64,000 nucleotides of DNA from Candidatus Woesearchaeota archaeon (GCA_018303005.1 JAGVYY010000031.1:24994-88993), one strand, 5' to 3'. Positions 6,821 to 28,757 are shown, counted from the first letter of the stretch. Notes: generated from the letters alone by a model not told the origin. Translations and numbers: made by a program.

Positions 6821-6951
6821 TCCTACCAAAACAACACATCATTTATTATATATTCCATAACTAACAAAAATAGCTTACATCCTCATTCCATTAATTCCAA
6901 CCCAAGATATAGTATTTATATTCAAAAACAAACAACAATCAACAATAATCA

Positions 6952-7527
6952 ATGATCAACAACCAAGAACAAAGGATAAAGAATTCTTTTTCAAAGGTCA
7001 AAAATGAGATAGACACAATAAAAAACCAATTAAAAGCCCTAGATAGCAAAATAACCCAATTAATCCAAGAATCATCAAAAACAACCACTCACCATCCAAA
7101 AGACATTTTTTTTGATATTTCCAGTGGAAATGAAGGGGTAATCAACAATCAACAACAATCAACAACAATCAACAATGATAATCAAAAGCCAATAATAAGC
7201 CTAAAAAAAGAGCTTAACGATCAATTCAAAAACCTCACAGATAGGGAATTTTCCATCTTCCTAGCCATATACTCCATCGAGGAAGAGATAGGAAAAGCAG
7301 TTGTTTTATCAGATATAGCCAATAAGTTAAAGATATCAGAAATCACTATCAGGGGATATCTAAACTCATTAATTTCTAAGAATTTACCAATTATCAAAGA
7401 AAGACCATTTAATCGGAAATTGCAACTCTCAATAACCAAGGAATTTAGAGATCTAACTCTCATTTCCAGGATAATTTCAATAAGGAATAGGTCAAATACG
7501 TCTCAAAAAACTCTTTTTGACACATGA
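6952..7527 (+). CDS. Coiled-coil protein with a C-terminal winged-helix domain (putative DNA-binding)
   Basis: The N-terminal half is a predicted coiled coil with N/Q-rich low complexity. The C-terminal segment LTDREFSIFLAIYSIEEEIGKAVVLSDIANKLKISEITIRGYLNSL looks like a wHTH. Confidence 0.45.
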   Translation: MINNQEQRIKNSFSKVKNEIDTIKNQLKALDSKITQLIQESSKTTTHHPKDIFFDISSGNEGVINNQQQSTTINNDNQKPIISLKKELNDQFKNLTDREFSIFLAIYSIEEEIGKAVVLSDIANKLKISEITIRGYLNSLISKNLPIIKERPFNRKLQLSITKEFRDLTLISRIISIRNRSNTSQKTLFDT

Positions 7528-7639
7528 TTCAACTCTCAAAGTCAGCAATAACAAAAGATGGATCACAATTCAGCAACTAATCTCTAAATATAAAACTCAT
7601 AATATCTCAATACGTCTACGAACTTCGAAGACGTCTACG

Positions 7640-7676
7640 ACATGTCTACAGACGTCTAAGACGTCTGTAGACATGT
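7640..7676. repeat. Perfect 18-bp inverted repeat with a 1-nt spacer (ACATGTCTACAGACGTCT a AGACGTCTGTAGACATGT), preceded by two direct ACGTCTACGA repeats at 7611-7640
   Basis: Read directly from the sequence. It lies about 45 nt upstream of the ORF starting at 7719 and is relatively GC-rich in an AT-rich intergenic region. Confidence 0.8.
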
Positions 7677-7718
7677 AAAATAGTAAGATATTTATATATA
7701 AACAATGTTACAAAGTAT

Positions 7719-8336
7719 ATGGTTTGGTGGATATTTAGAAGAAAAAGAGTAGATGAACAGCAACTGCAAAACTTAATAATCAATCTAAGATACTCTTTCA
7801 ATAACATTAAGAAAGATATTGCAGCAATACACAATCAAATAAAAAGATTAGAAGACACAGATGATAATATAGAAAAAAGAGTATCATCATTAGACACCAC
7901 AATATCAAATTTAGAGCCTAAATTTAAACAAATAGAATATAACTCTAGGAGGTATACAAAAGAAAAGATTACTAAACCTGATTTAGACATAAAAGATCAA
8001 AACCATTCTCATAGCATAATAAAATCATTAACTACAACACAGCAAGAGATATTTAGAACAATCTATACAATACAACACCAATTAGAAACAGAAGATGTTT
8101 CCATTAAATCATTAGCAAAGGTATATTATCCTGATAAAAAATACTCCGATGTAAGATCAACAATATCTGAATATTTAACGATACTCTCAACACTAGGTTT
8201 GGTTTCAAAAAAAAGGAAAGGAAAGGAAACCTTTGTTAGTCTCACAAACATCGGATCAAAAGCTATCGAACAGATTAAAAAAAAGTATGAAGAAAAAGAA
8301 GATTCAGATAAAAATGAACCAGAATATACTCAATAA
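7719..8336 (+). CDS. Coiled-coil plus wHTH protein, paralogous in architecture to the 6952-7527 ORF
   Basis: N-terminal coiled coil. C-terminal LTTTQQEIFRTIYTIQHQLETEDVSIKSLAKVYY...LSTLGLVSKKRKGKETFVSLTNIG resembles a MarR-like wHTH. Confidence 0.45.
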   Translation: MVWWIFRRKRVDEQQLQNLIINLRYSFNNIKKDIAAIHNQIKRLEDTDDNIEKRVSSLDTTISNLEPKFKQIEYNSRRYTKEKITKPDLDIKDQNHSHSIIKSLTTTQQEIFRTIYTIQHQLETEDVSIKSLAKVYYPDKKYSDVRSTISEYLTILSTLGLVSKKRKGKETFVSLTNIGSKAIEQIKKKYEEKEDSDKNEPEYTQ

Positions 8337-8739
8337 TTTGAATTTGAATTATGAAGAACTATTTCAAATAGCAGTTTCAGTATTGGAGAATATAATACCA
8401 TTACACCAAATATATGGAGATGTATCATCCAAAGATAATCTTGGTATTATTTCAATAAGTGAAGCCTACATCTCCAAATCCATCTTTTTATGTGAAAAAT
8501 ATCAGGATAAGATTGAAAAATACACTGAGGAATTGGTTTCTATATTTGACATATCTGAAGAAGGCAGTCTACTTGAAAAAGAATTATCAGAAGTTTTTAA
8601 ATTATCTTATGTTATAAACTATATAGCGAATTTTGAGAAAGGTGAAGACAAACAAGATATATTGAGAACAGCATCTTCCTGGGATAGATATACACAAATT
8701 AAAAATAAAGAAAGACAAAAATATTTAATCATGGTTTGA
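8314..8739 (+). CDS. Hypothetical protein
   Basis: ATG at 8314, overlapping the end of the upstream ORF. The track entry begins at an alternative TTG at 8233. Confidence 0.35.
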   Translation: MNQNILNNLNLNYEELFQIAVSVLENIIPLHQIYGDVSSKDNLGIISISEAYISKSIFLCEKYQDKIEKYTEELVSIFDISEEGSLLEKELSEVFKLSYVINYIANFEKGEDKQDILRTASSWDRYTQIKNKERQKYLIMV

Positions 8740-8895
8740 ATTTTTTATAAAAACAAGCTCTTAGGTTGTTAGGTCTTTGTAGAAATTATCAACATTAAAA
8801 GGTACACACATCTGATATTAAAACTTTTAAGCATTGACAAAAGATTATCTAAACATAGAAAGATTTAAATATATTACATTTATTACATTTAAACT

Positions 8896-9147
8896 ATGGA
8901 AGAAGTTACGATTTCATTAAGGGTAGATAAAGAAGTACATAAAAAAATGAAATTACATGATGAAATAAACTGGAGCGCCTTATTAAGGAAATCAATAATA
9001 AAAACAATTGAGGATTTTGACTTTATTGATAAAGAAAGAGCAGAAAAAGCAGCTTTAAGTATGGATAAATTGAGGAAAGTAAATGCATTTTCTTCTGGAA
9101 AAGAAAGTGTTCAGGTCATTAGAGAATGGAGAAACAGACGAAAATAA
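8896..9147 (+). CDS. vapB: VapB-like antitoxin
   Basis: 83 aa. It overlaps the downstream PIN gene by a few nucleotides. A paralog is at 13327-13551. Confidence 0.55.
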   Translation: MEEVTISLRVDKEVHKKMKLHDEINWSALLRKSIIKTIEDFDFIDKERAEKAALSMDKLRKVNAFSSGKESVQVIREWRNRRK

Positions 9148-9524
9148 TAGATGCATCAATAGTTGTAAAATGGTTTGTTGATGAAGAGAATAGTAAAAAG
9201 GCTTTAGATATAAGAAACGACCATATTAATGGGAACATAAAAATTATAGTACCAGATCTTACCTTCATAGAAGTGTTAAATGCTCTTAAATATAAAGGAA
9301 AAACAGAAGAAGATTTAAAAGAAGCAAATAAGGATTTATGGGACATTCAATTACAGATAATAAAAACAACTTCTTTCACTTTAAACAAAGCAATAGAAAT
9401 AGCATTAAAACATGACATAACACTATACGATGCGCTATACATATCATTAAGCACAATATATGGTTGTCCTTTAATAACAGCAGATAAAAAATTAGCAGAT
9501 CTCCCAAATGTTCAGCTTATCTAA
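9126..9524 (+). CDS. vapC: PIN-domain VapC toxin
   Basis: KIIDASIVVKWFVDEE...ITADKKL carries the PIN acidic residues. It is translationally coupled to the upstream antitoxin. Confidence 0.8.
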   Translation: MEKQTKIIDASIVVKWFVDEENSKKALDIRNDHINGNIKIIVPDLTFIEVLNALKYKGKTEEDLKEANKDLWDIQLQIIKTTSFTLNKAIEIALKHDITLYDALYISLSTIYGCPLITADKKLADLPNVQLI

Positions 9525-9531
9525 GTGATAA

Positions 9532-9615
9532 TTAAAACTTTTAAGCAAAGATAAAATACTAAACTTCTACAATAAAAACTATAAAGTAGTAACAAAGCGA
9601 AAGGTTTATAAATAA
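9532..9615 (+). repeat. About 84-bp direct repeat, copy 1 (TTAAAACTTTTAAGCAAAGATAAAATACTAAACTTCTACAATAAAAACTATAAAGTAGTAACAAAgCGAAAGGTTTATAA)
   Basis: It matches 11106-11188 almost exactly, with 1 mismatch. It contains the palindrome TTAAAAcTTTTAA and a BRE/TATA-like end. Confidence 0.85.
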
Positions 9616-9947
9616 GTCTCTAATATTTTAACAAGATTAAATGAAATAATGGAGTTAAAATGGAACAACCAGAATATTTTAAGGGTTTAACAAATAGAGA
9701 TTATGTTCTTTTGCATAATCATCTTACAACACCAGTAGTTATGATGACATAAATAAGGAATTATTAAATTTTCCCCAAGGATCTATAAGGTTTGGGCCTG
9801 CTCTAGACCCAAGGTCGGGGGATTATCACCAAAGTCGGCAAAGATTTTTAATAGGATTATATATAACAAATACCCAATGTAAATCGGTAATTTTATGTGA
9901 CGGTAAACCAATAATATTAGAGGAAGCAATTGAAAAAGCAAAAATAA

Positions 9948-10493
9948 GTGATGGGATTTAAAAAGATGAAGCAGATAGAAGAAATAAGTGGTATAATTGA
10001 ATCAATGGATGATGATTCATTCTGTAGTTTTGCAAGAGAGCTTCAATATGGATTAAAATGGCATGCAGAAGCATATCAAGCAACACAAGTATCAATCTAT
10101 TTTAATGAATCCCCACATTTTGCAGGAGATATAGTTAAAAAGAATGGAAAACATAAAGAGAGTGTTGAAAAAATTAAAACATCTCCTTTGTACGATATTA
10201 TTAGAAGAGAATTAGCTAGAAGAACGAGTGATAGTGTCGATAATGATTGGGCAGGTTGGATCGATTTTAATAATAGATTTTTAAAATCACGTGAGGATGT
10301 TGATACAATAAATAGCTGTATTAGTAGAATTGTCAAAGGAGTTTATCCATTACAAGGGGTGATTAGGACAGAAAAAGAAAATCAAAGCTCAAAAGAAGCT
10401 AAAGAAAGAATATCAGAATATGGAATTAAAGGTTTCTTTATAGGAGATGCGGATTTAATTGACATTTTCTTTCACCATTACAGACAAAAATAG
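9948..10493 (+). CDS. Hypothetical protein
   Basis: 181 aa ORF inside the repeat-flanked segment. Confidence 0.4.
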   Translation: MMGFKKMKQIEEISGIIESMDDDSFCSFARELQYGLKWHAEAYQATQVSIYFNESPHFAGDIVKKNGKHKESVEKIKTSPLYDIIRRELARRTSDSVDNDWAGWIDFNNRFLKSREDVDTINSCISRIVKGVYPLQGVIRTEKENQSSKEAKERISEYGIKGFFIGDADLIDIFFHHYRQK

Positions 10494-10576
10494 GTTTATT
10501 TAGAAAGTAGTCTTAATCCATACAGAAATTTGGATGAGTTAAATATATAAACAAGAATAAAAGGTTAAATTATACA

Positions 10577-10780
10577 ATGCAAATAGAAGTAGCAAAAGAC
10601 ATCTCGGAAAATCTTGAAAGGGCTTCTAAAGAGCTAGGGCTAAATAAAAAAGAGTTAATAACAAGGGCAATAAAATTATACCTTCACAACATAAAAGAAT
10701 ATATAATCTTGAAAGAAGAACTTGAAGCTTGGGAAAGAGCTGGAACAGAGGATCTATTAGCCTTTGAAAATAAGATATGA
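10577..10780 (+). CDS. Ribbon-helix-helix (CopG/MazE-like) antitoxin
   Basis: 67 aa with ELITRAIKLYL. It overlaps the downstream toxin gene by 4 nt (ATGA). Confidence 0.5.
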   Translation: MQIEVAKDISENLERASKELGLNKKELITRAIKLYLHNIKEYIILKEELEAWERAGTEDLLAFENKI

Positions 10781-11103
10781 AAAAAGGTGAATTATGGGTT
10801 CTAGAACTTCCATTTCTAAATGGAAGAGAACAGAGAGGCACTCGACCGTGTTTAATCCTAGCAGATACGAAAACAGACATGATTGTTGTAATTCCATTAA
10901 CCTCAAATCTTCAAGCTTTAAGATTCCCACATACTGTAGAAATAAAAAAATCTGGAGAAAATAAGCTTGAAAAAGATTCAATAGCACTAATTTTTCAAAT
11001 TCAATCGTTAGATAAAAAGAGATTTATAAATAAAATCGGAGTTTTAGAAGATTATTATTTAAGCAAGGTAGATGAAGTACTAAAAAGATTAATTCAGTTA
11101 TAA
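10777..11103 (+). CDS. mazF: MazF/PemK-family toxin (endoribonuclease)
   Basis: GELWVLELPFLNGREQRGTRPCLILAD...VIPLTS is the PemK/MazF signature. Confidence 0.7.
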   Translation: MKKGELWVLELPFLNGREQRGTRPCLILADTKTDMIVVIPLTSNLQALRFPHTVEIKKSGENKLEKDSIALIFQIQSLDKKRFINKIGVLEDYYLSKVDEVLKRLIQL

Positions 11104-11105
11104 TC

Positions 11106-11188
11106 TTAAAACTTTTAAGCAAAGATAAAATACTAAACTTCTACAATAAAAACTATAAAGTAGTAACAAATCGAAAGGTTTATAAGAG
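11106..11188 (+). repeat. About 84-bp direct repeat, copy 2, immediately upstream of the gene at 11208
   Basis: See copy 1 at 9532-9615. Confidence 0.85.
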
Positions 11189-11207
11189 ATGGCTTCTCCT
11201 TTAGAAT

Positions 11208-11957
11208 ATGAATTTGAAAAAATCTTTTAGAAATATTTTAGGAATTACCATAGCATCTACCATTATGTATTTTTCATTAGATTCTAAAATGCAAGATAGT
11301 ATAAAAGATGTTACTCTTATGCCTATCAGAAGACTAGCTTACAGATTTGCATCTCAAACCGAAGCAGGATATCATGATATAGACATAATTCTAGATGCTA
11401 TAGTCTTGGGCGATGGGGATTATCGGGGTTCTTATTATGATTATAATAACCGTGACTATCATGGTGGCCCCAACATTCTAAAGATGTATTTAGGTTTAGA
11501 ACCCATAACTTTAGACAGATCTTTATATAAACCAACATCACTAACAAAGTTTTCAGATGTTCCGCTATACAGTATAAGCAAATATACAAAGTTAGATGAG
11601 TACTTGAATTGGAATACTGATTTTCTAAAGAGAATTTCGGAATTAAAGGAAGGAGAGATAATAAGTGGTGGGATAATTGGTGCTATACATACAAAAATAG
11701 ACCTCGGCAGAGGGCGTACTGTATCAATAGGCAGAGATAAGAAAGGGGCTTATGTTAGTTTATTTGACATATGGGACTTTGATTATTCTGCTGAAAACTG
11801 TGCAAGAGGGGAAAAAGATAAAAATATTCTGTTATTAATTGAGCGTTACTTAATGGATAAAATAGGAAAAAACAAAATCGGTTTCTATGACAGATTCTAT
11901 TTAAATGAAGCAGCCATTCAAAGAGAAGCGGATTCATTACCCCCTCTATCTAAATGA
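11208..11957 (+). CDS. Hypothetical protein with an N-terminal hydrophobic segment (membrane-anchored or secreted)
   Basis: 249 aa with no recognisable domain. Confidence 0.4.
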   Translation: MNLKKSFRNILGITIASTIMYFSLDSKMQDSIKDVTLMPIRRLAYRFASQTEAGYHDIDIILDAIVLGDGDYRGSYYDYNNRDYHGGPNILKMYLGLEPITLDRSLYKPTSLTKFSDVPLYSISKYTKLDEYLNWNTDFLKRISELKEGEIISGGIIGAIHTKIDLGRGRTVSIGRDKKGAYVSLFDIWDFDYSAENCARGEKDKNILLLIERYLMDKIGKNKIGFYDRFYLNEAAIQREADSLPPLSK

Positions 11958-12082
11958 GAGAAATGAAAAAAGTATAGAGTTATATACACCAAATTCGGTA
12001 GATCATAATTTATTGGATTTACTTCAAGAATAGAACACCATAACTCCAATTTTTAATATCATAAAATAAATCTAATATAAGA

Positions 12083-12113
12083 AAGTAGGCTTAATCCATA
12101 TTAAGCCTACTTT
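12083..12113. terminator. Perfect 13-bp stem (AAGTAGGCTTAAT / ATTAAGCCTACTT) with a 4-nt loop, followed by TTTTAAATTT, between convergent genes
   Basis: Read from the sequence. It sits between the 3' ends of the ORFs at 11208-11957(+) and 12130-12660(-). Confidence 0.5.
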
Positions 12114-12129
12114 TAAATTTAAGATATCC

Positions 12130-12660
12130 TTATTTAATTAATAAATCCATATCTTGTAGCTCTTTGTAAACTATCATTATAAACTCGTTCGTTATTCTTA
12201 CTAAATCTTTTTTAGAATAACCCACATTCATAGGTATTCGTTTCAGCTCCTCAGTATTCTTTGTACGATATAGTAACATGATATTGTATCTTCCATCTCT
12301 CCAATCTCTTATCTTACTATCTTCCAATAAATATATTTCAAATCGATAGATTCTCCCATAATAACCTATATTCCCTCCATATTTTAGATGACCAATCTTC
12401 CCCGAAAATTCAAACTTTCCATTTCTAGGCAGACTTTTATTTAGATTTTTTATAATATCTCCCGTCATCTCTTTTATATCTTTATCTAATTTACTTGCAA
12501 ATGTTAACTTTCCAACAAGGCTAAGTTGCTCCTTCCTCTCTCTATCCCAATGATTTTTTTCTGACCAATAAATTTCATCATCTCCCATCTTTTTAAATTT
12601 CTCCCAAAACCATTTACCTCTAAAACTTAAATTCTCTTTATATATATATCTTTCTATCAA
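12130..12660 (-). CDS. Hypothetical protein
   Basis: 176 aa. The listed start is an alternative start codon, so the true start is uncertain. Confidence 0.4.
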   Translation of the reverse strand: MIERYIYKENLSFRGKWFWEKFKKMGDDEIYWSEKNHWDRERKEQLSLVGKLTFASKLDKDIKEMTGDIIKNLNKSLPRNGKFEFSGKIGHLKYGGNIGYYGRIYRFEIYLLEDSKIRDWRDGRYNIMLLYRTKNTEELKRIPMNVGYSKKDLVRITNEFIMIVYKELQDMDLLIK

Positions 12661-12672
12661 ATTCTACTTAAT
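12649..12672 (+). repeat. Core repeat copy C (TCTTTCTATCAAATTCTACTTAAT)
   Basis: It matches the repeats at 13240-13264 and 14785-14803. It is related to ACTAAACTTCTACAATAAAA inside the 84-bp repeats. Confidence 0.7.
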
Positions 12673-12892
12673 TAACAATAACCTCTACAGGCAGTTCATT
12701 AGGTTTTATCTTACTAGAAATAAAGTTTAATTTTTCAAAACCTATAACTTTATTTGTTTTTGGATCTTTTTTTAATATAACTTCCTCTCCAGTTTCCTCA
12801 CTAATAATCTTTCTAGGCTTTTCAAACCATACATCTAATGTATTTCCTTCTCTATCAAAAAATACCATGATTTTATTCATTTTTATTTTCAT
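12668..12892 (-). CDS. DUF2283-family small protein (putative antitoxin partner)
   Basis: MKIKMNKIMVFFDREGNTLDVWFEKP...EEVILKKDPKTNKVIGFEKLNF matches the DUF2283 pattern. Confidence 0.55.
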   Translation of the reverse strand: MKIKMNKIMVFFDREGNTLDVWFEKPRKIISEETGEEVILKKDPKTNKVIGFEKLNFISSKIKPNELPVEVIVN

Positions 12893-13193
12893 AAATCAGT
12901 TCTCCTTCTTTAATCCTATCTGTATGATACGTAGTTATAATAAAACTATCATTATTTATATGCTTTGCTACAACTGAAACCCATAATTTTCCATATTTTT
13001 TATAATAAAGATAAACTGAACTATCCTTCTCACTCACCCTTATTTCATCAGGATTCATTAATGTTTCTTTAACCTCTTTCTCTTTATTCTCAATATCCGG
13101 ATGTTTTGTTCTTATTATAAGATTCCATCTATATCTTGTGACTTGAATTCTTTTACCAAATTTAGATATTACTTCAAAATAAACTTCATCCAT
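12873..13193 (-). CDS. DUF4258-family protein (putative toxin partner of DUF2283)
   Basis: 106 aa, overlapping the downstream DUF2283 gene. The motif pattern H..DI......V...L.NPD......S..YLYY...VVAKH.NND.FIITT.H is the expected one. Confidence 0.5.
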   Translation of the reverse strand: MDEVYFEVISKFGKRIQVTRYRWNLIIRTKHPDIENKEKEVKETLMNPDEIRVSEKDSSVYLYYKKYGKLWVSVVAKHINNDSFIITTYHTDRIKEGELIYENKNE

Positions 13194-13239
13194 AAATAAT
13201 TAAATAATTCATTCTATATAAGTTTTATTAGTATTATTA

Positions 13240-13264
13240 TCTTACTATCAAAATTCTACTTAAT
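13240..13264 (+). repeat. Core repeat copy D (TCTTACTATCAAAATTCTACTTAAT)
   Basis: Together with copy C it brackets the DUF4258/DUF2283 pair exactly. Confidence 0.7.
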
Positions 13265-13326
13265 ATCACTTAAAGCACCAAAACCCAAATCGGACTTTTA
13301 AATATGTGAAATCACATATCAATGAA

Positions 13327-13551
13327 ATGCCAAATTTAACATTATCAATAACAGAAGAGTTACATGAAAAGATGAAAAGACATTCTGAGATTAGATGGGG
13401 TGATATAGTTAGAAAATCTATTTCTGAGAAAATTGAAGATTTGGAGATTATGGATAGGCTTGCTAAAAAAAGCAAATTGACACAAGCAGATATTGGGGAA
13501 ATATCTCATAAAGTAAACAGAGATATTTTTGAAGAATTAAACAAAAGATGA
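13327..13551 (+). CDS. vapB: VapB-like antitoxin (paralog of 8896-9147)
   Basis: MPNLTLSITEELHEKMKRHSEIRW...RKSI.EKIEDLE is similar to the first VapB. Confidence 0.5.
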   Translation: MPNLTLSITEELHEKMKRHSEIRWGDIVRKSISEKIEDLEIMDRLAKKSKLTQADIGEISHKVNRDIFEELNKR

Positions 13552-13918
13552 AAGTTATACTTGATGTAAATATTATCTTGTCAGCTTTGATTCGCGATTC
13601 AACAACAAGAAAGATAATTCTTAATTCTGGGTTGATTTATACTCTCCAGAGCCATCCATGCACAAAATCAGAAAGTACGAGGATTATATTCTAAGAAAAT
13701 CCGGATTGACAGCAGAAGAATATAACAAACTCATGACAACCTTGCTCAAATATGTTAGATTAGTTCCTACTGAAGAAATAGAAAGGAATTGGAATGAAGC
13801 AAAGGAAATAATGGAGCATATAGATAAAGAAGATGTTGTTTTTATAGCAACTGCATTAGGCATCAAAAATTCAGTAGTATGGTCAGATGATAGGCATTTG
13901 AAAGGCAGAATAAGATAA
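13548..13918 (+). pseudogene. vapC: PIN-domain vapC disrupted by a frameshift. The N-terminal part (MKVILDVNIILSALI...) is in one frame, and the C-terminal part (13658-13918; DVVFIATALGIKNSVVWSDDRHL) is in another
   Basis: The two reading frames overlap over 13624-13700. The PIN N- and C-terminal motifs are split between them. Confidence 0.5.
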
Positions 13919-14324
13919 AGATATTAAAAACAGAAGAGATAAGCTTTTAATTTTTCTAAAATTTATATTTTCATATATGCTATTAAACTTACTTTCATTT
14001 GGAATCTACTTTCTCAATTAGTAACCAATCTCTAATAATAATTCTAATTTCATTGTCCGCCGTTCTAATATTCTCGCCCAAATCAGTTACACTCTTTCGT
14101 AAAAGAATTAATTGGGTACTTAAATTTTTTTGGACCTTTAAGTCTAATGTATCTATCTTCGGTATATCCCTAATCAAAAAATCAATACGAGCCAGTACAA
14201 TGCTATATTGAGAGGATATACTTTCTTTGTTTGCCATAATTTTCAATTAAATTTTCGATATATATCTCTATTCTCAAAGATATATTTTACAATACATCAT
14301 AACTCGATATCTTCCTGTCAAATT

Positions 14325-14744
14325 TTATAAACTCAAAAAAGCTCTAACAAGCAGTACCATATAAAATAAAGTGATAAAGAAAAATATAATCGATAATATC
14401 AAATAAATCCATACGAATTTAACCCTTCGAGTTTTATAAAATACCCAGAAATATAAGCTCATTATGGCGATAGGACTAATCATAATATTCAAAAAATAAA
14501 CATAAAAGTTGTAACCACCAAAAGCATACAACTTTACAAGTAAAATCGGCATGATAATGAAAATACCAATTAAAAAAGAAGCCATCAATACTATTAATAT
14601 GATTCCAGCATATTTTGTTCCTTTACCTTTATAAATCCCCCAAAGTTTTAATCCACCAATAATAGATAAGATAAGCATAACAAATAATAAAATAATCATT
14701 ATTCCAAAATCAATTTCAGCCATGATTAAAAGATGATTAATCAC
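14325..14744 (-). CDS. Small polytopic membrane protein
   Basis: About four hydrophobic helices. 139 aa or shorter. Confidence 0.4.
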   Translation of the reverse strand: MINHLLIMAEIDFGIMIILLFVMLILSIIGGLKLWGIYKGKGTKYAGIILIVLMASFLIGIFIIMPILLVKLYAFGGYNFYVYFLNIMISPIAIMSLYFWVFYKTRRVKFVWIYLILSIIFFFITLFYMVLLVRAFLSL

Positions 14745-14784
14745 TTAATAAATTGTTTCATTTAAAAAAACACAAATTAGATAA

Positions 14785-14803
14785 ATCAAAAATTCTACTT
14801 AAT
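14785..14803 (+). repeat. Core repeat copy E (ATCAAAAATTCTACTTAAT), 4 nt upstream of the recombinase ATG
   Basis: Read from the sequence. Confidence 0.7.
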
Positions 14804-14806
14804 CTA

Positions 14807-15643
14807 ATGGAAAAAGAGTTGATATTAGAAAAATTAAGAACAGAACTAACAATACAGGGAAAATCGCAAAAAACAATAGACGCTTATCTATTACATACAC
14901 AAAAATTTCTTGAATTTATAAAGAAAGATTCTTCTAAACTGCAAAAACAAGATATAAAGAATTATTTAGCAGACTTAATGTCAAAAAACTTAAAACCAAA
15001 ATCAATAAACTTAAAACTGTCTACAATACGTTTCCTAAACAGATATATATTAAAAAACCCAAAGTTAATGGAAGATATCAAATCACAAAAAACAGCAGAG
15101 AAGATACCAACCTACCTGACAACTGAAGAAATTCAAAAGTTGCTAGCAACCATTAAAAATTCTAAGCATAAGCTTATGATAGAGATAATGTTAACATCTG
15201 GATTAAGAGTATCGGAGTGTATCAATCTAAAACAACAAGATATTAACGACGACAATACCATAACTGTAAGAGCAGGCAAAGGGAATAAAGACAGGATTAC
15301 AATAATTCCAAGTTCAGTATTACAACATCTGAAGAAGCATATAGAAGAGAGAAAACATGATTCAGATTATGTTTTGTGCAAAAAAAACGGTAATAAACTC
15401 AGTGTAAAATTACCCCAGAAAATCATAAAACAATTAGCAATTAAATCAGGAATCAAGAAGAACATAACACCTCATGTTTTAAGACATTCATTCGCAACCC
15501 ATCTCTTGCATAATGGCACAGATATTCGTTATATTCAAATATTGCTGGGGCATGCACAGATTCAGACAACTCAGATTTATACACACATCTCAAAAGAGCA
15601 GATTAAGCAGATCAAGAATCCCTTCAATGATATGATAAAATAA
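14807..15643 (+). CDS. xerA: Tyrosine site-specific recombinase (XerA/XerC/XerD-like integrase)
   Basis: The C-terminal catalytic region is HVLRHSFATHLLHNGTDIRYIQILLGHAQIQTTQIYTHI (R..H.R...Y). The N-terminal core-binding domain is present. About 279 aa. Confidence 0.8.
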   Translation: MEKELILEKLRTELTIQGKSQKTIDAYLLHTQKFLEFIKKDSSKLQKQDIKNYLADLMSKNLKPKSINLKLSTIRFLNRYILKNPKLMEDIKSQKTAEKIPTYLTTEEIQKLLATIKNSKHKLMIEIMLTSGLRVSECINLKQQDINDDNTITVRAGKGNKDRITIIPSSVLQHLKKHIEERKHDSDYVLCKKNGNKLSVKLPQKIIKQLAIKSGIKKNITPHVLRHSFATHLLHNGTDIRYIQILLGHAQIQTTQIYTHISKEQIKQIKNPFNDMIK

Positions 15644-15940
15644 TCTCAATAAATTATCTCTATTGGACTATAAAATGATAATATTTAAATATATAGCAAT
15701 TATTATACTTCTAAATGAAAAAAAGCCAAAAAAACGTTGAAACACCGAGGCAACAACGTATTAAAGCCAGGCACATATTGTGGATTTTTATTATAATTAT
15801 AATATTGGTAATATTGTGGGCAATCGGAACATATACAAAATTATACCTAAAATAAGAATTTTGATATAGATACCATAATTCAGATAAGTTTAAATATCTG
15901 GTAATAAATATAAATCGTCGATAAAAGGAGGCAAAATAAA

Positions 15941-16066
15941 TGGGAAAAGTAATTTTAAAGAATGCAATACAAAGAAAAGCAGGCCATCTTTATTATGTAG
16001 ACGGCAAAGGTAATGTGTGTGAAGCAGTCATGGCCCGTGGTGGAAAAAGAAAAAGAAAAAAATAAT
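15941..16066 (+). CDS. Small basic protein (41 aa), MGKVILKNAIQRKAGHLYYVDGKGNVCEAVMARGGKRKRKK
   Basis: A strong AAAGGAGG Shine-Dalgarno-like sequence lies 7 nt upstream. It is not in the ORF track (shorter than 60 aa). Confidence 0.3.
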
Positions 16067-16368
16067 TATCTCACAATTTCTCTGAAAAGAGCAAAAATAA
16101 TTTTTTTTGAGATTTTATATTCTCTTAAACCTTTTTTTGTGAGATGATACATTTTTTTTCTACCGATCTGTTTAAACTTAACAAGATTATACATTCTTAA
16201 TCTTTTTAATGTTGGATAAATAGTTCCTGGTGTCAGCTTATTTCCTTTTCTTCTGCCTATAATAAAAGCAAGATCTTCACCACAACAATGTTTTCTCTTT
16301 AGCTCTTTCATTATCTGGAAACTCAATAAGCCTCGAAGATCAATGTATTTTGGTAGTTTCATTTTCAA
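16066..16368 (-). CDS. PadR-family transcriptional regulator
   Basis: ELKRKHCCGEDLAFIIGRRKGNKLTPGTIYPTLKRLRMYNLV fits the PadR wHTH. Confidence 0.6.
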   Translation of the reverse strand: MKMKLPKYIDLRGLLSFQIMKELKRKHCCGEDLAFIIGRRKGNKLTPGTIYPTLKRLRMYNLVKFKQIGRKKMYHLTKKGLREYKISKKIIFALFREIVR

Positions 16369-16373
16369 TCAAT

Positions 16374-16390
16374 GATTAAAACTTTTAATC
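16374..16390. promoter_or_regulatory. Perfect palindrome GATTAAAAcTTTTAATC directly upstream of the padR-like gene start (candidate operator)
   Basis: The same core TTAAAAcTTTTAA occurs at 8818, 9533 and 11106, upstream of the TA cassettes. Confidence 0.45.
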
Positions 16391-16481
16391 ATATAGTCAT
16401 ATATTGCACATTCAATATATTTGACATCCAATATATAAACTTTTCCGAGTATTATACTGGAATTATTTTAAAGAATAAAAA

Positions 16482-16898
16482 TCAAAATAATTGAACTTCA
16501 AAATCCTTAAATCTATCATAATTGCTGATATAATTCTCTGAGCTTTTCACATTTTTGAATTGTTTTATCCTGTTATCTACCTTTCCGAAAAAATTTGTCA
16601 GTTTCATTTCAGTTTCATCCAATCTTTGGAAAGAGATTATCTTTAAATTAGCAAGGACATCATTTTTGTCATAAGCAGCATCTTTTTCAGATTCTGTCTT
16701 TTCTTTTTCTTTTATCTCTTTCAGCACCCTTTCAGTCATAATTTCAGGGTTGGATAGCTTATAATGGTTATAATATACCTTACTTTTGCCATTGACCTCA
16801 AAATTTACTCTTAGGTCAAAATCTTTGTCCCTTAATGAAAAGTTAGATGCTCCAATTTTCAATAACTTTATAGCAATATTTTGCATAAACCACTGCAT
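16482..16898 (-). CDS. Hypothetical protein
   Basis: 138 aa ORF. Confidence 0.4.
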   Translation of the reverse strand: MQWFMQNIAIKLLKIGASNFSLRDKDFDLRVNFEVNGKSKVYYNHYKLSNPEIMTERVLKEIKEKEKTESEKDAAYDKNDVLANLKIISFQRLDETEMKLTNFFGKVDNRIKQFKNVKSSENYISNYDRFKDFEVQLF

Positions 16899-16977
16899 TA
16901 TACTTATTGATTTTTAATCTTTTCTATGGAATAATATTAAAAACATTTTTATATACACCAAAATTGAACAGTAAAAT

Positions 16978-17063
16978 GGGTCCGTAGCTCAGCCTGGCCA
17001 GAGCACCTGTGTCTGATGAAACTCTTAATCAGGGTGGCGCGGGTTCAAATCCCGTCGGACTCA
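16978..17063 (+). tRNA. tRNA-Lys (anticodon CUU) with an inferred 11-nt intron at a non-canonical position inside the anticodon stem (about 17010-17020). No CCA is encoded
   Basis: Acceptor GGGTCCG/CGGACTC. T-arm GCGGG-TTCAAAT-CCCGT. Removing TGTCTGATGAA gives the anticodon arm CCTGA-CTCTTAA-TCAGG. Confidence 0.65.
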
Positions 17064-17174
17064 TTCAAATTAAAATAACAGTAGAATAGTTCCTATTATC
17101 AATCAGGAAAATGATAAACCACTAAAAAGAAGAGCCAGAAAAAGAGAAGAAACATTAAGATTATGGATTTTGCA

Positions 17175-17453
17175 TTAAAGCAAGTCTTTAATTCTCTCAA
17201 TATGTTCTGCAATTCTGTTTCCGTTTTCTGTCAGATTTATGGATTTTATTCTTCCATGCTTCTCAAAGTTCACTAACTTAGATCTTTCCATCTCTTGTAG
17301 TATCTTTACGGCATGACTATAAGTACAGTCAACTTCCTTTGCCAAGACGCTTCCATATCTGTTCTTACCACCCTTTCTAAGAGCAACTAACATCATTGCT
17401 GGCTTTTTCCTAAAAAATACCTCAAAGATATCTGTTTTTTTCTTTACCATCAT
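17175..17453 (-). CDS. Winged-helix transcriptional regulator
   Basis: 92 aa; GSVLAKEVDCTYSHAVKILQEMERSKLV. Confidence 0.5.
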   Translation of the reverse strand: MMVKKKTDIFEVFFRKKPAMMLVALRKGGKNRYGSVLAKEVDCTYSHAVKILQEMERSKLVNFEKHGRIKSINLTENGNRIAEHIERIKDLL

Positions 17454-17496
17454 ATACCATGGACTGATAATACTAATATTTAAATGTTTTGATTAA

Positions 17497-17514
17497 AACT
17501 ATAGTTTTAAAGAT
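17497..17514. promoter_or_regulatory. Palindrome TTAAAACtataGTTTTAA in the divergent promoter region between the wHTH regulator and serS
   Basis: Read from the sequence. A BRE/TATA (TAAGGTTTATATAAATAA, 17541-17558) follows, 23 nt upstream of the serS ATG. Confidence 0.45.
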
Positions 17515-20005: not shown

Positions 20006-22042
20006 ATGACATATGAATTAATAATAGCAGAGAAAACAGATGCTGCTAAAAGGATTGCAGAAGCTTTGGCAGATATTAAAGCAGAGAAGAAAGTTACAAA
20101 TAAAATTCCATATTTTGAATTATCCCATGATGGAAAAAAGATTGTTGTTGCATCTGCAGTCGGTCACTTATTTGTCTTGGCAGAAAATAAAAAAACACAA
20201 GATTATCCAAATTTTGATATTTCTTGGCAGCCTAGTTATAAAGTCTTCAAAAAAAGTTATTTTACAAAAAATTATCTTGATCTATTAACGCAGTTATCAA
20301 AAAATGCTTCCTCTTATGTAATTGCATGCGATTATGATACAGAAGGCGAAGTAATCGGTAGAAATGTCTTAAAATTCATTTGTGAGAAATCTAATGCAAA
20401 AAGAATGAAATTCTCAACATTAACAAAAGAAGAGTTGTTTGACTCTTATAAAAATGCTTCAAAATCAATAGATTTAAAATTAGTTGAGGCAGGAGAAGCA
20501 AGACATTATCTGGATAACTATTGGGGTTTGAACTCCAGTAAAGCATTAACTTTAGCAATTAAAAATTCCGGTATGTTTAAGCTTCTATCTTCAGGCAGGG
20601 TACAAAGCCCAATCCTTACATTAATAGCGCATAAGGAAGAACAGATTGAATCTTTTATTCCAAAGCAATACTGGCAGTTATTGGCAAAAATCAACATAAA
20701 AGATCAGCTAATTGAAGCATTACACCAGGAGGATAAATTTTGGGATAAAAAACAGGCGAGTTTGATATATAAAAAATGTAAAGATAAAGATGCAACTGTA
20801 AAAGAGATAAAGAAAAGAGAGTACAATACAAACCCACCAACACCTTTTAATATTACCTCATTGCAAACAGAATCTTATAAGAATTTTGGATTTTCTCCTA
20901 AACAGACTCTGGATATTGCTGAAAGGCTCTATTTAAGCGCTCATATCAGTTATCCAAGAACTTCGTCAGAAAAATTGCCTCAAACAATAGACTATAAAAA
21001 AATAATAAAAAGCCTGTCTTCTATTAAGGATTTAAACAAAAATGCCGTGCTCTTATTACAGAAACAACATTTAAAACCAAATGAAGGAACAAAAACAGAT
21101 CCGGCACATATCGCAGTTTACCCAACAGCAAATATTCCCAATATAATAAAGCTAAATGAACAAGAAAAAAAGATATATATGTTGATTGCAAAAAGATTTT
21201 TGGCAGTGTTTGCAGATCCAGCATTAAGAGAATCCATGGAGATAAAATTTGATATCAACAATGAAATATTTAAGGCATCAGGTTCAAGGACAATAAATCC
21301 GGGATGGATGTCATTTTATGCACCGTATGTAAAATTTAAAGAAGTTCAACTACCAGAAACAAAAGAAAATGAAAAACATACTGTTAAAGACCTGATATTG
21401 AAAGAGGATAAAACAAAACCTCCTGCACGTTACACCCAAGGTTCTATAATCTCCGAAATGGATGAAAAAAATCTTGGAACAAGGGCAACAAGGGCCCAAA
21501 TATTGCAGATATTATACGATAGATACTACATTGAAGATAAAAGTATAAAAATAACAGAGATTGGAAAATCAGTTATCAAAGTTTTAGAGAAATATGTCCC
21601 GGAGTTAGTTTCAGAAGATCTGACAAGGCAATTTGAACTTGAATTAGAGCAGATACAGGAATCAAGAACAACAGAAGAAGAAGTTATTGAAAAAGCAAAA
21701 CAACTATTAACAAAAATATTTGTCAATTTCAAAAAACATGAAAAAAATATAGGAAAGCATTTAGTTGAAGCATTAAAAGAGACACAAGACAAAGCATCTA
21801 TCTTGGGAAAATGCCCTGTATGTATGGAAGGAGATCTAAGGATATTGTTCTCAAGAAAAACAAAAAAGAAGTTTGTTGCGTGTAATAAATATCCGGAATG
21901 CAAAACAACTTACAGTTTAACTTCAGGAAAGGTAATACCCACAGGCGAGACATGCCAATATTGTAAAACACCACTAATAAAGGTGCAAAGAACAGGAAAA
22001 AGGCCGTTTAAGAATCAAAGAAGAAAAATGAGACATGATTAA
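20006..22042 (+). CDS. topA: DNA topoisomerase, type IA, with C-terminal zinc ribbons
   Basis: Toprim N-terminus (IIAEK..AAKRIAEAL). 678 aa. C-terminal C4 motifs (CPVC...CNKYPEC; CQYC). Confidence 0.85.
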   Translation: MTYELIIAEKTDAAKRIAEALADIKAEKKVTNKIPYFELSHDGKKIVVASAVGHLFVLAENKKTQDYPNFDISWQPSYKVFKKSYFTKNYLDLLTQLSKNASSYVIACDYDTEGEVIGRNVLKFICEKSNAKRMKFSTLTKEELFDSYKNASKSIDLKLVEAGEARHYLDNYWGLNSSKALTLAIKNSGMFKLLSSGRVQSPILTLIAHKEEQIESFIPKQYWQLLAKINIKDQLIEALHQEDKFWDKKQASLIYKKCKDKDATVKEIKKREYNTNPPTPFNITSLQTESYKNFGFSPKQTLDIAERLYLSAHISYPRTSSEKLPQTIDYKKIIKSLSSIKDLNKNAVLLLQKQHLKPNEGTKTDPAHIAVYPTANIPNIIKLNEQEKKIYMLIAKRFLAVFADPALRESMEIKFDINNEIFKASGSRTINPGWMSFYAPYVKFKEVQLPETKENEKHTVKDLILKEDKTKPPARYTQGSIISEMDEKNLGTRATRAQILQILYDRYYIEDKSIKITEIGKSVIKVLEKYVPELVSEDLTRQFELELEQIQESRTTEEEVIEKAKQLLTKIFVNFKKHEKNIGKHLVEALKETQDKASILGKCPVCMEGDLRILFSRKTKKKFVACNKYPECKTTYSLTSGKVIPTGETCQYCKTPLIKVQRTGKRPFKNQRRKMRHD

Positions 22043-23450: not shown

Positions 23451-23643
23451 CTTATTATTCTTATTGCAAATGCATATAAGGTCATTTAAAAGAATTTTTA
23501 TATATAAAGTTATAAAATCTATCTTGTTGAATAACACTTTTTGTGCAAAACGAGTAGTTATTGTGCAGAATTGAATATTTGTGCAAAGCCTTCTCAATCC
23601 AAAGATTTATATACATGATGTATACACACAAAGTATACACAAA

Positions 23644-27398: not shown

Positions 27399-27572
27399 TC
27401 TTAAAAGATAATCTTAAATATACTCTTTCATTTCTATTTTTACCTAGGCTTAGTCTAGGCCACAGGCTTACCCATAGTGCTATTTAAAATAGCCATGAAA
27501 TACAACTGATTATCTTTTGATAGAGAGATAATAAAAAGCAGTGAATGATATAAGAGTGGGCAAGCTATATCT

Positions 27573-27646
27573 GGTGTCCATAGGTTGGTTCATAGTAGGA
27601 ACTTGAATCTGAATGCTAGGTATGAGAATCTTGTTAACTCGAAATT
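27573..27646 (+). repeat. DGR template region (TR), rich in AAC/AAT codons, flanked by an inverted repeat (CCTAGGCTTAGTCT at about 27446 and AGACTAAGCTAGG at about 27689)
   Basis: Read from the sequence. Coordinates may be off by 1 nt. Confidence 0.55.
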
Positions 27647-27710: not shown

Positions 27711-28757
27711 ATGAAAACTTACACCAGTCTTTACTTAAATTTATTTGATATAGATAGATTATATTTAGCTTATAAAAAAGCAAAAAAAGGTAAATCAAAT
27801 AAAGATTATGTTTAAAAATTTCAGAGAGATTTAATGAATAATCTATCTGCATTAAGGTTAGAACTATTCTTTCATTCCTATAAACCAAAACCATTAAAGA
27901 CTTTCATTATCAGGGACCCTAAAACAAGAAAAATCAGTAAATCTGATTTCAGGGACAGAATTGTGCATCATGCCTTAATCAATATTCTAGAACCAATATT
28001 CGATAAAGTTTTTATTTATGATAGTTATGCAAATAGGATTGGTAAAGGAACTACAAAAGCAATAGAAAGATTAAAATTATTTATTATAAAAGTTACTAAG
28101 AATAATAAAAGAAATACTTATTGCCTGAAACCAGATATTAAACATTATTTTGAAACTGTTAATCATGAAGTTTTATTGAATCTTATTAAAAGAAAGATAA
28201 GATAACAGAATAATATGGTTAATAAAAATAAATTTAGAAAACTATTATTTTAAAGAAAAAAATAAAGGTATGCCTCTAGGGAATTTAACCTCCCAATTTT
28301 TTGCTAACGTTTACTTAAATGAGCTTATCAATATATTAAACATAAATTAAAAGTTAAATATTATATAAGGTATGTGGATGATTTTGTTATATTACATGAA
28401 AATAAAAATAAATTAAATTTTTATAAGAATCAAATAAAGGAATTTTTAAAAAACAATCTAAAGATTGAGCTTCATAAAGATAAATCTAAAATATTTTTCA
28501 TAAGAAAAGGAATAACATTTTTAGGATTTAGGCATTTTTATTTTTATACCATATTAAATAAAAATAAAAGAAAACATGTCAATAATAAGATTAAAGATAT
28601 AATTAAAGAGAGTAAAGAAATGGAAGATTATAAAAAATTAATGCAAAGATTTGAATCTATTTTATCACATTTAGAAATTGGAAATACATATTATTTAAGA
28701 AACAATTTTATAGTTAAGTTAAACAATAATATTAATATGTTAAACATAAAGCAGTAG
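27711..28757 (+). pseudogene. DGR-type reverse transcriptase, degraded. Motifs 0-7 are all present but split over at least 4 segments by three in-frame TAA codons and at least two frameshifts
   Basis: Motif 0 is LYLAYKKAKKGK. Motifs 1-3 lie in the ORF at 27834-28205. Motif 4 is GMPLGNLTSQFFANVYLNEL (DGR hallmark). Motif 5 is YIRYVDDFVIL (ORF 28374-28757). Confidence 0.75.

Follow-up and report, generated by a model that had tools for sequence, protein, structure and literature searches.

We analyzed a 64-kb window of DNA (the whole stretch, given in plus-strand coordinates; AT-rich, ~30% GC) from an uncultivated Woesearchaeota-type DPANN archaeon found in aquifer metagenomes. Directly upstream of xerA, which encodes its Xer tyrosine recombinase, lies a variable island of ~6 kb that spans 8.8-14.8 kb. 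Sequence comparison suggests, with a probability that we put at roughly one in two, that this island is made of gene cassettes, mostly toxin-antitoxin pairs, that were built up at a chromosomal module of xerA and its target site dif by Xer-type recombination. Supported directly are the identity of XerA, the hypervariability of the cargo, the occurrence of the same repeats in different species, the dif-type architecture of two island sequences (C2 and C1, below), and the linkage of dif to xerA in DPANN archaea. A preliminary description of this DNA had proposed a cassette-like accessory island, rich in toxin-antitoxin genes and abutting an Xer-like recombinase; the genes and the comparison with relatives both agree with it.

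The recombinase is a housekeeping XerA and neither an integron integrase nor a virus-type integrase.

14807-15643, plus strand: xerA, archaeal Xer tyrosine recombinase of 278 aa (XerA equivalog, Pfam, synteny)

The protein passes the XerA equivalog model NF040815 (243.1 bits; cutoff 220) and has the Pfam domains PF13495 and PF00589, the SAM-like N-terminal and tyrosine-recombinase catalytic domains. It fails the integron-integrase subfamily model TIGR02249 (199 bits in two stretches; cutoff 265), the IntI equivalog NF011946 (116 bits; cutoff 435), and the XerC, XerD, and XerS models. Its DPANN homologues at ~45% identity number in the thousands. The gene order arginyl-tRNA synthetase (ArgRS)...xerA-41aa-padR...seryl-tRNA synthetase (SerRS)-phosphoesterase-topoisomerase I is kept in relatives whose XerA proteins are 77%, 76%, 72%, and 59% identical. 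The equivalog match and the conserved synteny therefore identify the gene as chromosomal xerA rather than a mobile-element integrase. The preliminary call of an Xer-like tyrosine recombinase at 14807-15643 agrees with these profile searches. The same description had regarded a chromosomal XerA with a separate dif elsewhere as fatal to its reading. The recombinase is indeed chromosomal XerA, but the candidate dif lies inside the island and not elsewhere, so the identity of the recombinase strengthens the Xer-linked reading.

The labels L008, L028, L029, L047, L301-L303, and so on denote the xerA-bearing loci or contigs compared with the window. Close relatives amount to a handful of contigs, many of which end just upstream of xerA, which is consistent with repeats or variability at that place. 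L028 (xerA 77% identical) is the closest relative with a long contig. When window positions 6900-17500 were aligned with L028 by blastn, colinear flanks were found at 7098-8297 and 14767-17064 of the window, and between them only short noncoding repeats of three families matched (A, 84-94%; B, 87-96%; C, 86%). All-against-all BLASTP gave orthologues for every flank gene and essentially none for the island cargo; the only island proteins with counterparts in L028 are DUF2283 (30%) and the 176-aa protein, which matches one of 161 aa (22%). The L028 island is also rich in toxin-antitoxin genes (VapB/PIN, MazE-like, DUF2283), but their sequences are unrelated to those in the window. The repeats are thus conserved in relatives and the genes between them are not, the opposite of the conserved gene order that the preliminary description, which had called for such a synteny comparison, named as counting against it. 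All three repeat families are confined to the neighborhood of xerA; neither the other ~55 kb of the window nor the rest of the loci in relatives holds further copies. In IMG/VR, a 20-nt C pattern had no matches, and a 16-nt B pattern had 106 single, scattered matches that resemble chance.

Gene calls combine an open reading frame (ORF) listing with Pfam and NCBIfam profile searches. The island carries the following genes.

8896-9147 and 9126-9524, plus strand: vapBC, a VapB-like antitoxin and a PIN toxin (Pfam/NCBIfam)
9660-9752, plus strand: 30-aa ORF that precedes the 181-aa gene
9948-10493, plus strand: hypothetical protein of 181 aa without a family match (ORF listing, profile searches)
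10577-10780 and 10777-11103, plus strand: ribbon-helix-helix (RHH)/RelB-like antitoxin and MazF/PemK toxin (Pfam/NCBIfam)
11208-11957, plus strand: hypothetical protein of 249 aa with a hydrophobic N-terminus (ORF listing)
12130-12660, minus strand: hypothetical ORF of 176 aa (ORF listing)
12873-13193 and 12668-12892, minus strand: DUF4258 (PBECR2/RelE-like nuclease) and DUF2283, a putative toxin-antitoxin pair (Pfam)
13306-13551, plus strand: second VapB-like antitoxin, followed by a PIN_2 gene split by a frameshift into 13548-13694 and 13658-13918 (profile searches)
13995-14246, minus strand: hypothetical protein of 83 aa (ORF listing)
14325-14744, minus strand: multipass membrane protein of 139 aa (ORF listing)

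Pfam and NCBIfam agree with the gene set proposed earlier (vapBC, RHH-MazF, DUF4258/DUF2283, and a second vapB with a frameshifted vapC). The toxin-antitoxin cargo consists of adjacent small gene pairs with matching domains (PIN, PemK/MazF, PIN_2, DUF4258/PBECR2, and DUF2283; VapB- or RelB-like), several of which score below the curated cutoffs. The gene calls for the split PIN_2 are identical in all population contigs. The likely start of the 176-aa ORF is an in-frame ATG (MGDD...) ~70-75 nt inside the listed frame; distant homologues of its product adjoin xerA in L028 (161 aa) and L303, and a homologue of the 139-aa membrane protein adjoins xerA in L301 and L302 too. The cassette genes are preceded by archaeal promoter boxes (B-recognition element and TATA box, BRE/TATA) and form two orientation blocks that converge on C2. 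Pfam searches found no recombinase domain in any island ORF.

The repeats comprise three separate families, A, B, and C, rather than one. The preliminary description had treated them as two forms of one related sequence; the common part is only AAA[C/A]TTCTAC (10 nt). The segment ACTAAACTTCTAC, inside an 84-nt repeat of family A, was considered as a form of B and rejected because it reads CAAATTACTA in the relative's copy. Family C, which is absent from the preliminary description, supplies the candidate dif site.

12084-12111, no strand assigned: C2, a perfect 11-6-11 palindrome, AGTAGGCTTAA-TCCATA-TTAAGCCTACT, with 11/11 complementary arms; candidate dif (XerA target)
10502-10522, plus strand: C1, AGAAAGTAGTCTTAATCCATA, a half copy made of the left arm and the 6-nt spacer (21 nt, 95% identity to C2), next to an unrelated right arm

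Bacterial and archaeal dif sites have 11-bp inverted arms and a 6-bp spacer (PMC2958812, PMC8371274). C2 is one of only two perfect palindromes with 11-bp arms in the 64 kb, and it sits where the plus- and minus-strand gene blocks of the island converge. The homology between C1 and C2 stops exactly at the border of the spacer and the right arm, the position at which Pyrococcus abyssi XerA cleaves (PMC3646895). C1 and C2 are direct repeats 1578 bp apart that bracket the RHH-MazF pair, repeat A3, and the 249-aa gene. This arrangement is the pattern that Xer-mediated integration, of the type known from integrative mobile elements exploiting Xer (IMEX), would leave. In the variable region upstream of xerA, C2 is conserved in L028, with one mismatch, and in L029, where it is inverted; C1 is identical to the L028 site at 18/18 nt. 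The loop TCCATA is kept in three species, which a terminator would not need. The L029 arm AAAAGTTCCCTTAA agrees with the canonical Woesearchaeal dif arm AAAACTTCGCTTAA at 12/14 positions.

Several further observations touch C2. The other perfect palindrome, GTCTACAGACG TCTAAGA CGTCTGTAGAC at 7644-7672, lies between two coiled-coil/helix-turn-helix-like genes (191 aa and 205 aa), has related copies in L028 (4512-4569), and is probably an operator. The dif matrix also matches at 23466, within a RadA/KaiC-like gene, but L028 does not conserve this sequence, and the match was dismissed as chance. The population has two alleles at C2: most contigs contain an additional 73 nt immediately outside the C2 right arm (window 12109-12114; L008 14399-14465), together with a C/T change in the arm. 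The position of this indel is counted in favor of Xer-type recombination. These 73 nt, which hold the A-like string GCTAAAAGCTTATCA, are absent from the window and from four contigs of two samples, and several assemblies break there.

Family B is AAATTCTACTTAAT, in three copies, one of which stands at the start of xerA.

12656-12672, plus strand: B1, ATCAAATTCTACTTAAT, which overlaps the DUF2283 stop codon and lies just upstream of the minus-strand BRE/TATA of the 176-aa gene, AGAAAGATATATATA
13247-13264, plus strand: B2, ATCAAAATTCTACTTAAT (repeat search, exact motif matches)
14785-14803, plus strand: B3, ATCAAAAATTCTACTTAAT, between the putative xerA TATA box and the start codon

Exact TTCTACTTAA has three matches in the 64 kb (12662, 13254, and 14793), all on the plus strand and within 2.2 kb, and the exact 13-mer AATTCTACTTAAT also has three (12660, 13252, and 14791), in the same B copies only. 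A degenerate fourth B-like copy, not noted in the preliminary description, lies at ~14307-14332, between the 83-aa gene and the membrane-protein gene. The short motif had been reported earlier at 12656, 13247, and 14785 and is real, and two of its copies do bracket the DUF4258/DUF2283 pair, with the DUF2283 stop codon inside the first. The last copy, said to end 4 nt before the ATG, stops at 14803, so that 3 nt separate it from the ATG at 14807. A longer left flank, ATATCTTTCTATCAAAA, is common to the cassette-type copies and is a minus-strand BRE/TATA for the neighboring minus-strand gene. In six lineages whose xerA is 72-100% identical, the string AAA(A/G)TTCTACTTAAT stands without variation 3-4 nt ahead of the xerA ATG, while nearby intergenic DNA diverges; the distant L103 likewise has a canonical dif directly adjoining the xerA ATG. 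L303 (xerA 77%) has one B core and the homologue of the 176-aa gene near xerA, where the window has two B-delimited units between them. Between the promoter of that homologue and xerA, L303 also carries an element of ~130 nt (190-345) with terminal inverted repeats, GGATTAAGTGAAATTG...CAATTAATTTCACTTAACC, and a flanking 9-nt direct repeat, GAAAATCAG, which resembles the insertion of a miniature inverted-repeat transposable element. Readings of B as a canonical 11-6-11 site in several registers, with the left arm ATTCTACTTAA and a right arm in the first xerA codons, or with the spacer TTAATA and the right arm TTATGCAAAAA, were rejected, as the arms are inverted in none of them.

Family A has the core TTAAAACTTTTAAGCA in four copies, at 8818, in A2, in A3, and at 16376; the first and the last do not appear in the preliminary description.

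8815-8847, plus strand: A1, with its core at 8818-8833; stands at the left border of the variable region and is followed by the vapB BRE/TATA, AAAGATTTAAATATA
9529-9611, plus strand: A2, 80-84 nt, composed of the A core, a spacer, and the BRE/TATA CGAAAGGTTTATAA; begins 5 nt past the vapC stop codon
11103-11185, plus strand: A3, the second promoter-bearing copy of 80-84 nt; begins at the MazF stop codon
16373-16391, between the padR promoter and start codon: A-type near-perfect palindrome, TGATTAAAACTTTTAATCA (fold z = -3.1)
16066-16368, minus strand: PadR-family regulator (Pfam)

A1 is 94% identical to L028 6328-6359. The long repeat (9532-9611 versus 11106-11185) is 99% identical over 80 nt and reaches ~84 nt if its edges, which begin at 9529 and 11103, are included. 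The 84-bp repeats recognized in the preliminary description are real; the string ACTAAACTTCTACAATAAAA inside them, placed there at 9548 and 11132, lies at 9558 and 11132. The BRE/TATA of A2 and A3 stands 22-58 nt before start codons. A2 is 85% identical to L028 6327-6411, a copy that precedes a nonhomologous gene; across the two loci the long repeat precedes three nonhomologous genes, two in the window (proteins of 181 and 249 aa) and one in L028 (255 aa), and a C-type sequence follows each. The earlier concern that the repeats might be duplicated promoter or leader sequences without conservation in relatives was half right: the 84-nt repeat contains a promoter, but it is conserved. The arms of A and C share the inner GCTTAA/TTAAGC, with different spacing. 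On these sequences family A is ambiguous, in that the palindromic padR-proximal copies look operator-like. Elsewhere A-type cores occur in tandem, two of them 36 nt apart in L029 (8886-8937) and three within ~100 nt in L032 (8197-8303); these clusters are iteron-like and are poorly explained by an operator and by a recombination site alike.

The linkage of dif to xerA was surveyed in more distant genomes. Metagenome and genome scans for closer xerA relatives gave, among the matches listed, identities of <=52%; such relatives were useless for the B motif and were used for the dif survey. Each of 100 DPANN xerA loci, most of them extending <=10 kb to either side, was scored as a whole for its best dif-like palindrome. 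This lies <=300 nt upstream of xerA in 19 loci (11 used for training the matrix and 8 independent) and 0.37-9.6 kb upstream in 28, and is downstream in only 2. Distant Woesearchaeota have, just upstream of xerA, the unmistakable dif sites GTGCATATAA TGCATA TTATGCGAAC, GGGCGTATAA TGTATA TTACGCGTC, and ACTTCGTATAA TACACA TTAAGCGAAGT; in other DPANN archaea a canonical dif almost always stands upstream, 30 nt to several kb from xerA. Where related genomes can be aligned (six loci), homology starts exactly at dif and runs through xerA, and the DNA to the left differs. Between dif and xerA, L064 and L062 carry toxin-antitoxin-like pairs, and in L047 three directly oriented dif-like sites precede xerA, separated from one another by single genes. 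Several Woesearchaeota encode, precisely in the interval from dif to xerA, a conserved protein of ~160-175 aa that contains repeated CxxC double zinc ribbons (L040 9484-10002, L049 2726-3244, L229 172-699, and L051 829-1305); this protein is a candidate Xer accessory or regulatory factor.

L047 also bears on the nature of B. Its DUF4258/DUF2283 pair upstream of xerA is 67% and 83% identical to the pair in the window, whereas the two XerA proteins share only 45% identity. The L047 pair is bracketed by direct repeats that end in the canonical dif right arms CATTAGACGAATTTT and CTTAGGCGAACTTTT; the window pair, in the same orientation relative to the genes, is bracketed by B, which reads ATTAAGTAGAATTT(T) on the gene strand. 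These two sets of brackets around the same pair are the best argument for B as an arm-type Xer half-site. Contigs with homologues of the DUF4258 toxin are nearly all very short (0.6-3 kb), which fits regions that are rich in repeats or strain variation and assemble poorly.

Our observations suggest a mechanism for growth of the array. We infer that XerA binds and cuts at C, and perhaps at B or A, and that cassettes move as circles inserted in some order and direction. XerA would bind the dif-type site C2, and small circular DNAs with one good arm and a matching spacer would integrate by strand exchange at the spacer border. Each integration would leave a hybrid half-site on one side (C1 and probably the B copies) and regenerate a usable site on the other. 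Because every event would yield both a half-site and a regenerated site, the array would grow between or around dif and xerA. Cassettes may bring or acquire their own archaeal promoters, found in the A and B-long repeats, and the toxin-antitoxin cargo would stabilize the array. The position of B3 between the TATA box and the start of xerA suggests that XerA may repress its own gene and so be autoregulatory.

A broader form of this proposal, which we put forward only tentatively, is that Woesearchaeota-type DPANN archaea use XerA and its linked dif as a gene-capture platform, with small promoter-bearing cassettes entering at dif or at half-sites and piling up between dif and xerA. If true, such a platform would give archaea an Xer-based functional counterpart to integrons and dif modules, to our knowledge undescribed. 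The window would be a single case of it, with A, B, and C as three classes of site, and a B site over the xerA promoter and start would couple expression of the recombinase to occupancy of the site.

A number of findings weigh against cassette accumulation by XerA. A paired dif matrix built from distant DPANN xerA-proximal sites scores C2 at 13.1, the second-highest value in the window, against a mean of 9.0 and a maximum of 14.4 for shuffled sequence; the single-arm and paired matrices are suggestive but do not rise above shuffled sequence, and were discarded as proof that C2 is dif. C2 is also a plausible bidirectional terminator hairpin (DNA fold z = -6.2, with a terminator-like score). The window covers 64 kb of the genome, and a further dif may lie beyond it. 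The gene cdc6/orc1 lies ~14 kb from C2, which would be unusual if dif marks the terminus; it is ~2.3 kb left of window position 1 (L008 position 1) and ~11 kb from the left edge of the island. If cdc6/orc1 marks an active origin, dif would lie away from the terminus in this genome. B has no recognizable inverted partner arm, matches the C arms at ~9/13 positions, which is not above chance in AT-rich DNA, and, always standing 40-90 nt upstream of a minus-strand gene beside a BRE/TATA, may be promoter-associated. The A core is palindromic and kept upstream of padR, as an operator would be, and A2 and A3 clearly bear promoters. In some relatives, strings that resemble dif arms, AAAGTTCGTCTAAT, are likewise present at ordinary promoters, which confounds the counts of half-sites in those genomes. 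The DUF4258/DUF2283 pair is not always a site-bounded cassette, as pairs in L304 and L306 lie between housekeeping genes without flanking repeats. Finally, the population sample of 27 contigs, drawn from many samples and >99.7% identical to the window, has a single gene order, with no excision or insertion variants and no presence or absence of cassettes.

The main rival is an explanation in which the island is an ordinary variable hotspot of toxin-antitoxin and defense genes, the repeats are regulatory, and the proximity of xerA is incidental. We regard this as unlikely, though far from negligible. Family A would be a PadR operator with a propagated promoter, B an upstream element of the minus-strand and xerA promoters, and C a bidirectional terminator; genes would turn over by homologous recombination on conserved flanks or on the short modules. 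The clear BRE/TATA CGAAAGGTTTATAA ahead of start codons in A2 and A3 would suit such a scheme, as would the A palindrome, which occupies the interval between the padR promoter and start in L028 and L301 as it does in the window. Every cassette-type B is contiguous with a minus-strand BRE/TATA (ATATATATCTTTCT on that strand), the genes that adjoin B-long in the window, L028, and L303 are weakly homologous, and C2 is the only terminator-like match in the island and stands at a convergent gene junction. The uniform gene order of the 27 population contigs is also as this explanation would have it. However, this explanation does not account for the restriction of the repeats to the neighborhood of xerA. 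C1 has the loop and a single arm and so is unable to fold into the C2 hairpin, yet it is 95% identical to C2 up to the spacer border, and three species keep the TCCATA loop. Relative to xerA, B3 is placed and oriented in the opposite way to the B copies at the minus-strand genes. Regulation also leaves unexplained the DPANN-wide bias of dif toward the upstream side of xerA, with cargo between.

That one virus or plasmid integrated near the tRNA with an integrase of its own, and now stands there whole or as a remnant, is very improbable. A tyrosine recombinase at one end, a tRNA 1.3 kb downstream, and an island GC content slightly below that of the surrounding DNA would suit it. However, xerA, padR, a 138-aa gene, and the tRNA are a syntenic backbone, and the variable DNA is on the other side of xerA. 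The island contains no repeat of the tRNA 3' end, profile searches of it found no replication, capsid, or conjugation genes, and searches of IMG/VR contigs gave no similar site. The tRNA is thus unrelated to the island, being part of the backbone kept in relatives (L028 has a syntenic 86-nt tRNA at 12197-12282), and was rejected as an attachment site on synteny. The tRNA gene itself, called tRNA-Lys in the preliminary description, is real; the Lys assignment may be right. ARAGORN calls it Arg(CCT) at 16977-17064, with an odd anticodon position, and Rfam reports a tRNA at 16978-17063 with a 20-nt anticodon-loop region. Manual removal of an 11-nt intron, at a noncanonical anticodon-stem position, gives a perfect stem and the anticodon CUU (Lys). 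In the Rfam scan this tRNA is the sole match near the island, which itself has no known RNA families.

It is scarcely credible that the locus is a true integron (IntI-type integrase, attI site, and promoterless cassettes bounded by attC sites) of the kind reported in archaeal metagenome-assembled genomes: the array does lie on the 5' side of the recombinase gene, away from which its adjacent cassettes are transcribed, toxin-antitoxin genes abound in the cargo, as in chromosomal integrons (PMC9668308), and the repeats are more alike within a genome (99%) than between genomes (~85%), but the 278-aa recombinase is a syntenic housekeeping gene that failed the IntI models and passed the XerA equivalog, the cassettes have their own promoters and two orientations, and A (both strands) and three B copies are unfolded (DNA fold z +0.4 to +0.9), whereas attC sites are defined by folded structure (PMC9668308). 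Of the integron-like or dif-module architecture suggested at the outset, the first half accordingly falls with the IntI models, the folding, the promoters, and the orientations, and the second is upheld by the C2 palindrome and the DPANN xerA loci.

Some features outside the island were recorded in passing. Compared with most population assemblies, the window lacks 77 nt, a length not divisible by 3, in the metallophosphoesterase gene (19523) and ~54 nt close to where the topoisomerase region ends (22010-22013); either the differences are genuine minor variants or the window was locally misassembled. At 27443-27573, Rfam gives a match to the RT-16 RNA (50.3 versus a gathering score of 50), followed by an RVT_1 reverse-transcriptase gene at 27834-28757 in two ORFs, with a tRNA beginning at 28751. 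The segment 27443-28757 resembles a degraded retron-like or group-II-like reverse-transcriptase element, and an intact RVT_1 is present in the syntenic region of L032.

If cassette accumulation at xerA-dif is correct, it would extend Xer-exploiting gene mobility from bacteria to archaea and would mean that tiny genomes with few mobile-element enzymes can gain and swap accessory genes by means of a housekeeping recombinase. It also bears on how defense and toxin-antitoxin genes are exchanged among DPANN archaea. In practice, dif could be found in uncultivated lineages by looking upstream of xerA, and the distance from dif to xerA would flag recently acquired cargo. The 278-aa recombinase and a 28-bp site with natural half-sites are compact substrates for biochemistry. 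Even if the repeats are regulatory, short promoter, operator, and terminator modules have been conserved here while the genes between them were fully replaced.

In the literature searched, we found nothing on Xer-exploiting elements in archaea and no description of variable cargo with half-sites between dif and xerA. Among known systems, modules with a single recombinase, namely XerS/difSL of streptococci, XerH/difH of epsilon-proteobacteria, and archaeal XerA/dif, resemble the locus in having one Xer linked to a site of 11-6-11 architecture (PMC2958812), and some archaea harbor a xerA/dif module (PMC5357621). In Thermococcales, however, dif is not adjacent to xerA (PMC2958812), whereas in many DPANN loci it is 30-300 nt upstream. 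Single-recombinase xer-dif modules have been described only for dimer resolution, and variable cargo and half-sites between site and gene are not part of them. Integrons, including archaeal ones (Ghaly et al. 2022, PMC9668308), share with the island a primary site at the 5' end of the recombinase gene and a cassette array rich in toxin-antitoxin genes. They differ from it in that the island has no IntI signature, no attC-like structure, and promoter-bearing cassettes in both orientations.

Closer parallels are found among elements that exploit the Xer machinery of their host. IMEX (CTX-phi, TLC-phi, and VGJ-phi at Vibrio cholerae dif1, the gonococcal genetic island, and LME-1 at Legionella dif) have no integrase of their own and integrate at the chromosomal dif; the island ORFs are likewise without a recombinase. 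Integration of an IMEX duplicates part of the site, such that a hybrid of one arm and the spacer stands beside a regenerated full site, and successive insertions give arrays. The partial and full sites C1 and C2, in direct orientation, and the repeated pattern of arm and spacer in B are IMEX-like in this respect. In contrast, the host here is an archaeon with the single recombinase XerA and no FtsK, the units are 0.6-1.6 kb long with one or two genes, mostly toxin-antitoxin, rather than phages or large islands, and the array occupies the stretch from dif to the xer gene. IMEX are moreover defined by demonstrated Xer-dependent integration of a circular element, whereas the island is known from its sequence. 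The pdif modules of Acinetobacter are similar in being small, often toxin-antitoxin-bearing, and delimited by Xer sites, and are shuffled between replicons, presumably by the host XerC/D (PMC6449649, PMC13141974). They are plasmid-borne, with full 28-bp XerC/XerD sites in alternating inverted orientation, whereas the sites here are direct, mostly half-sites, and chromosomal, beside xerA. The locus is a member of neither IMEX nor the pdif modules, although it is functionally closest to both.

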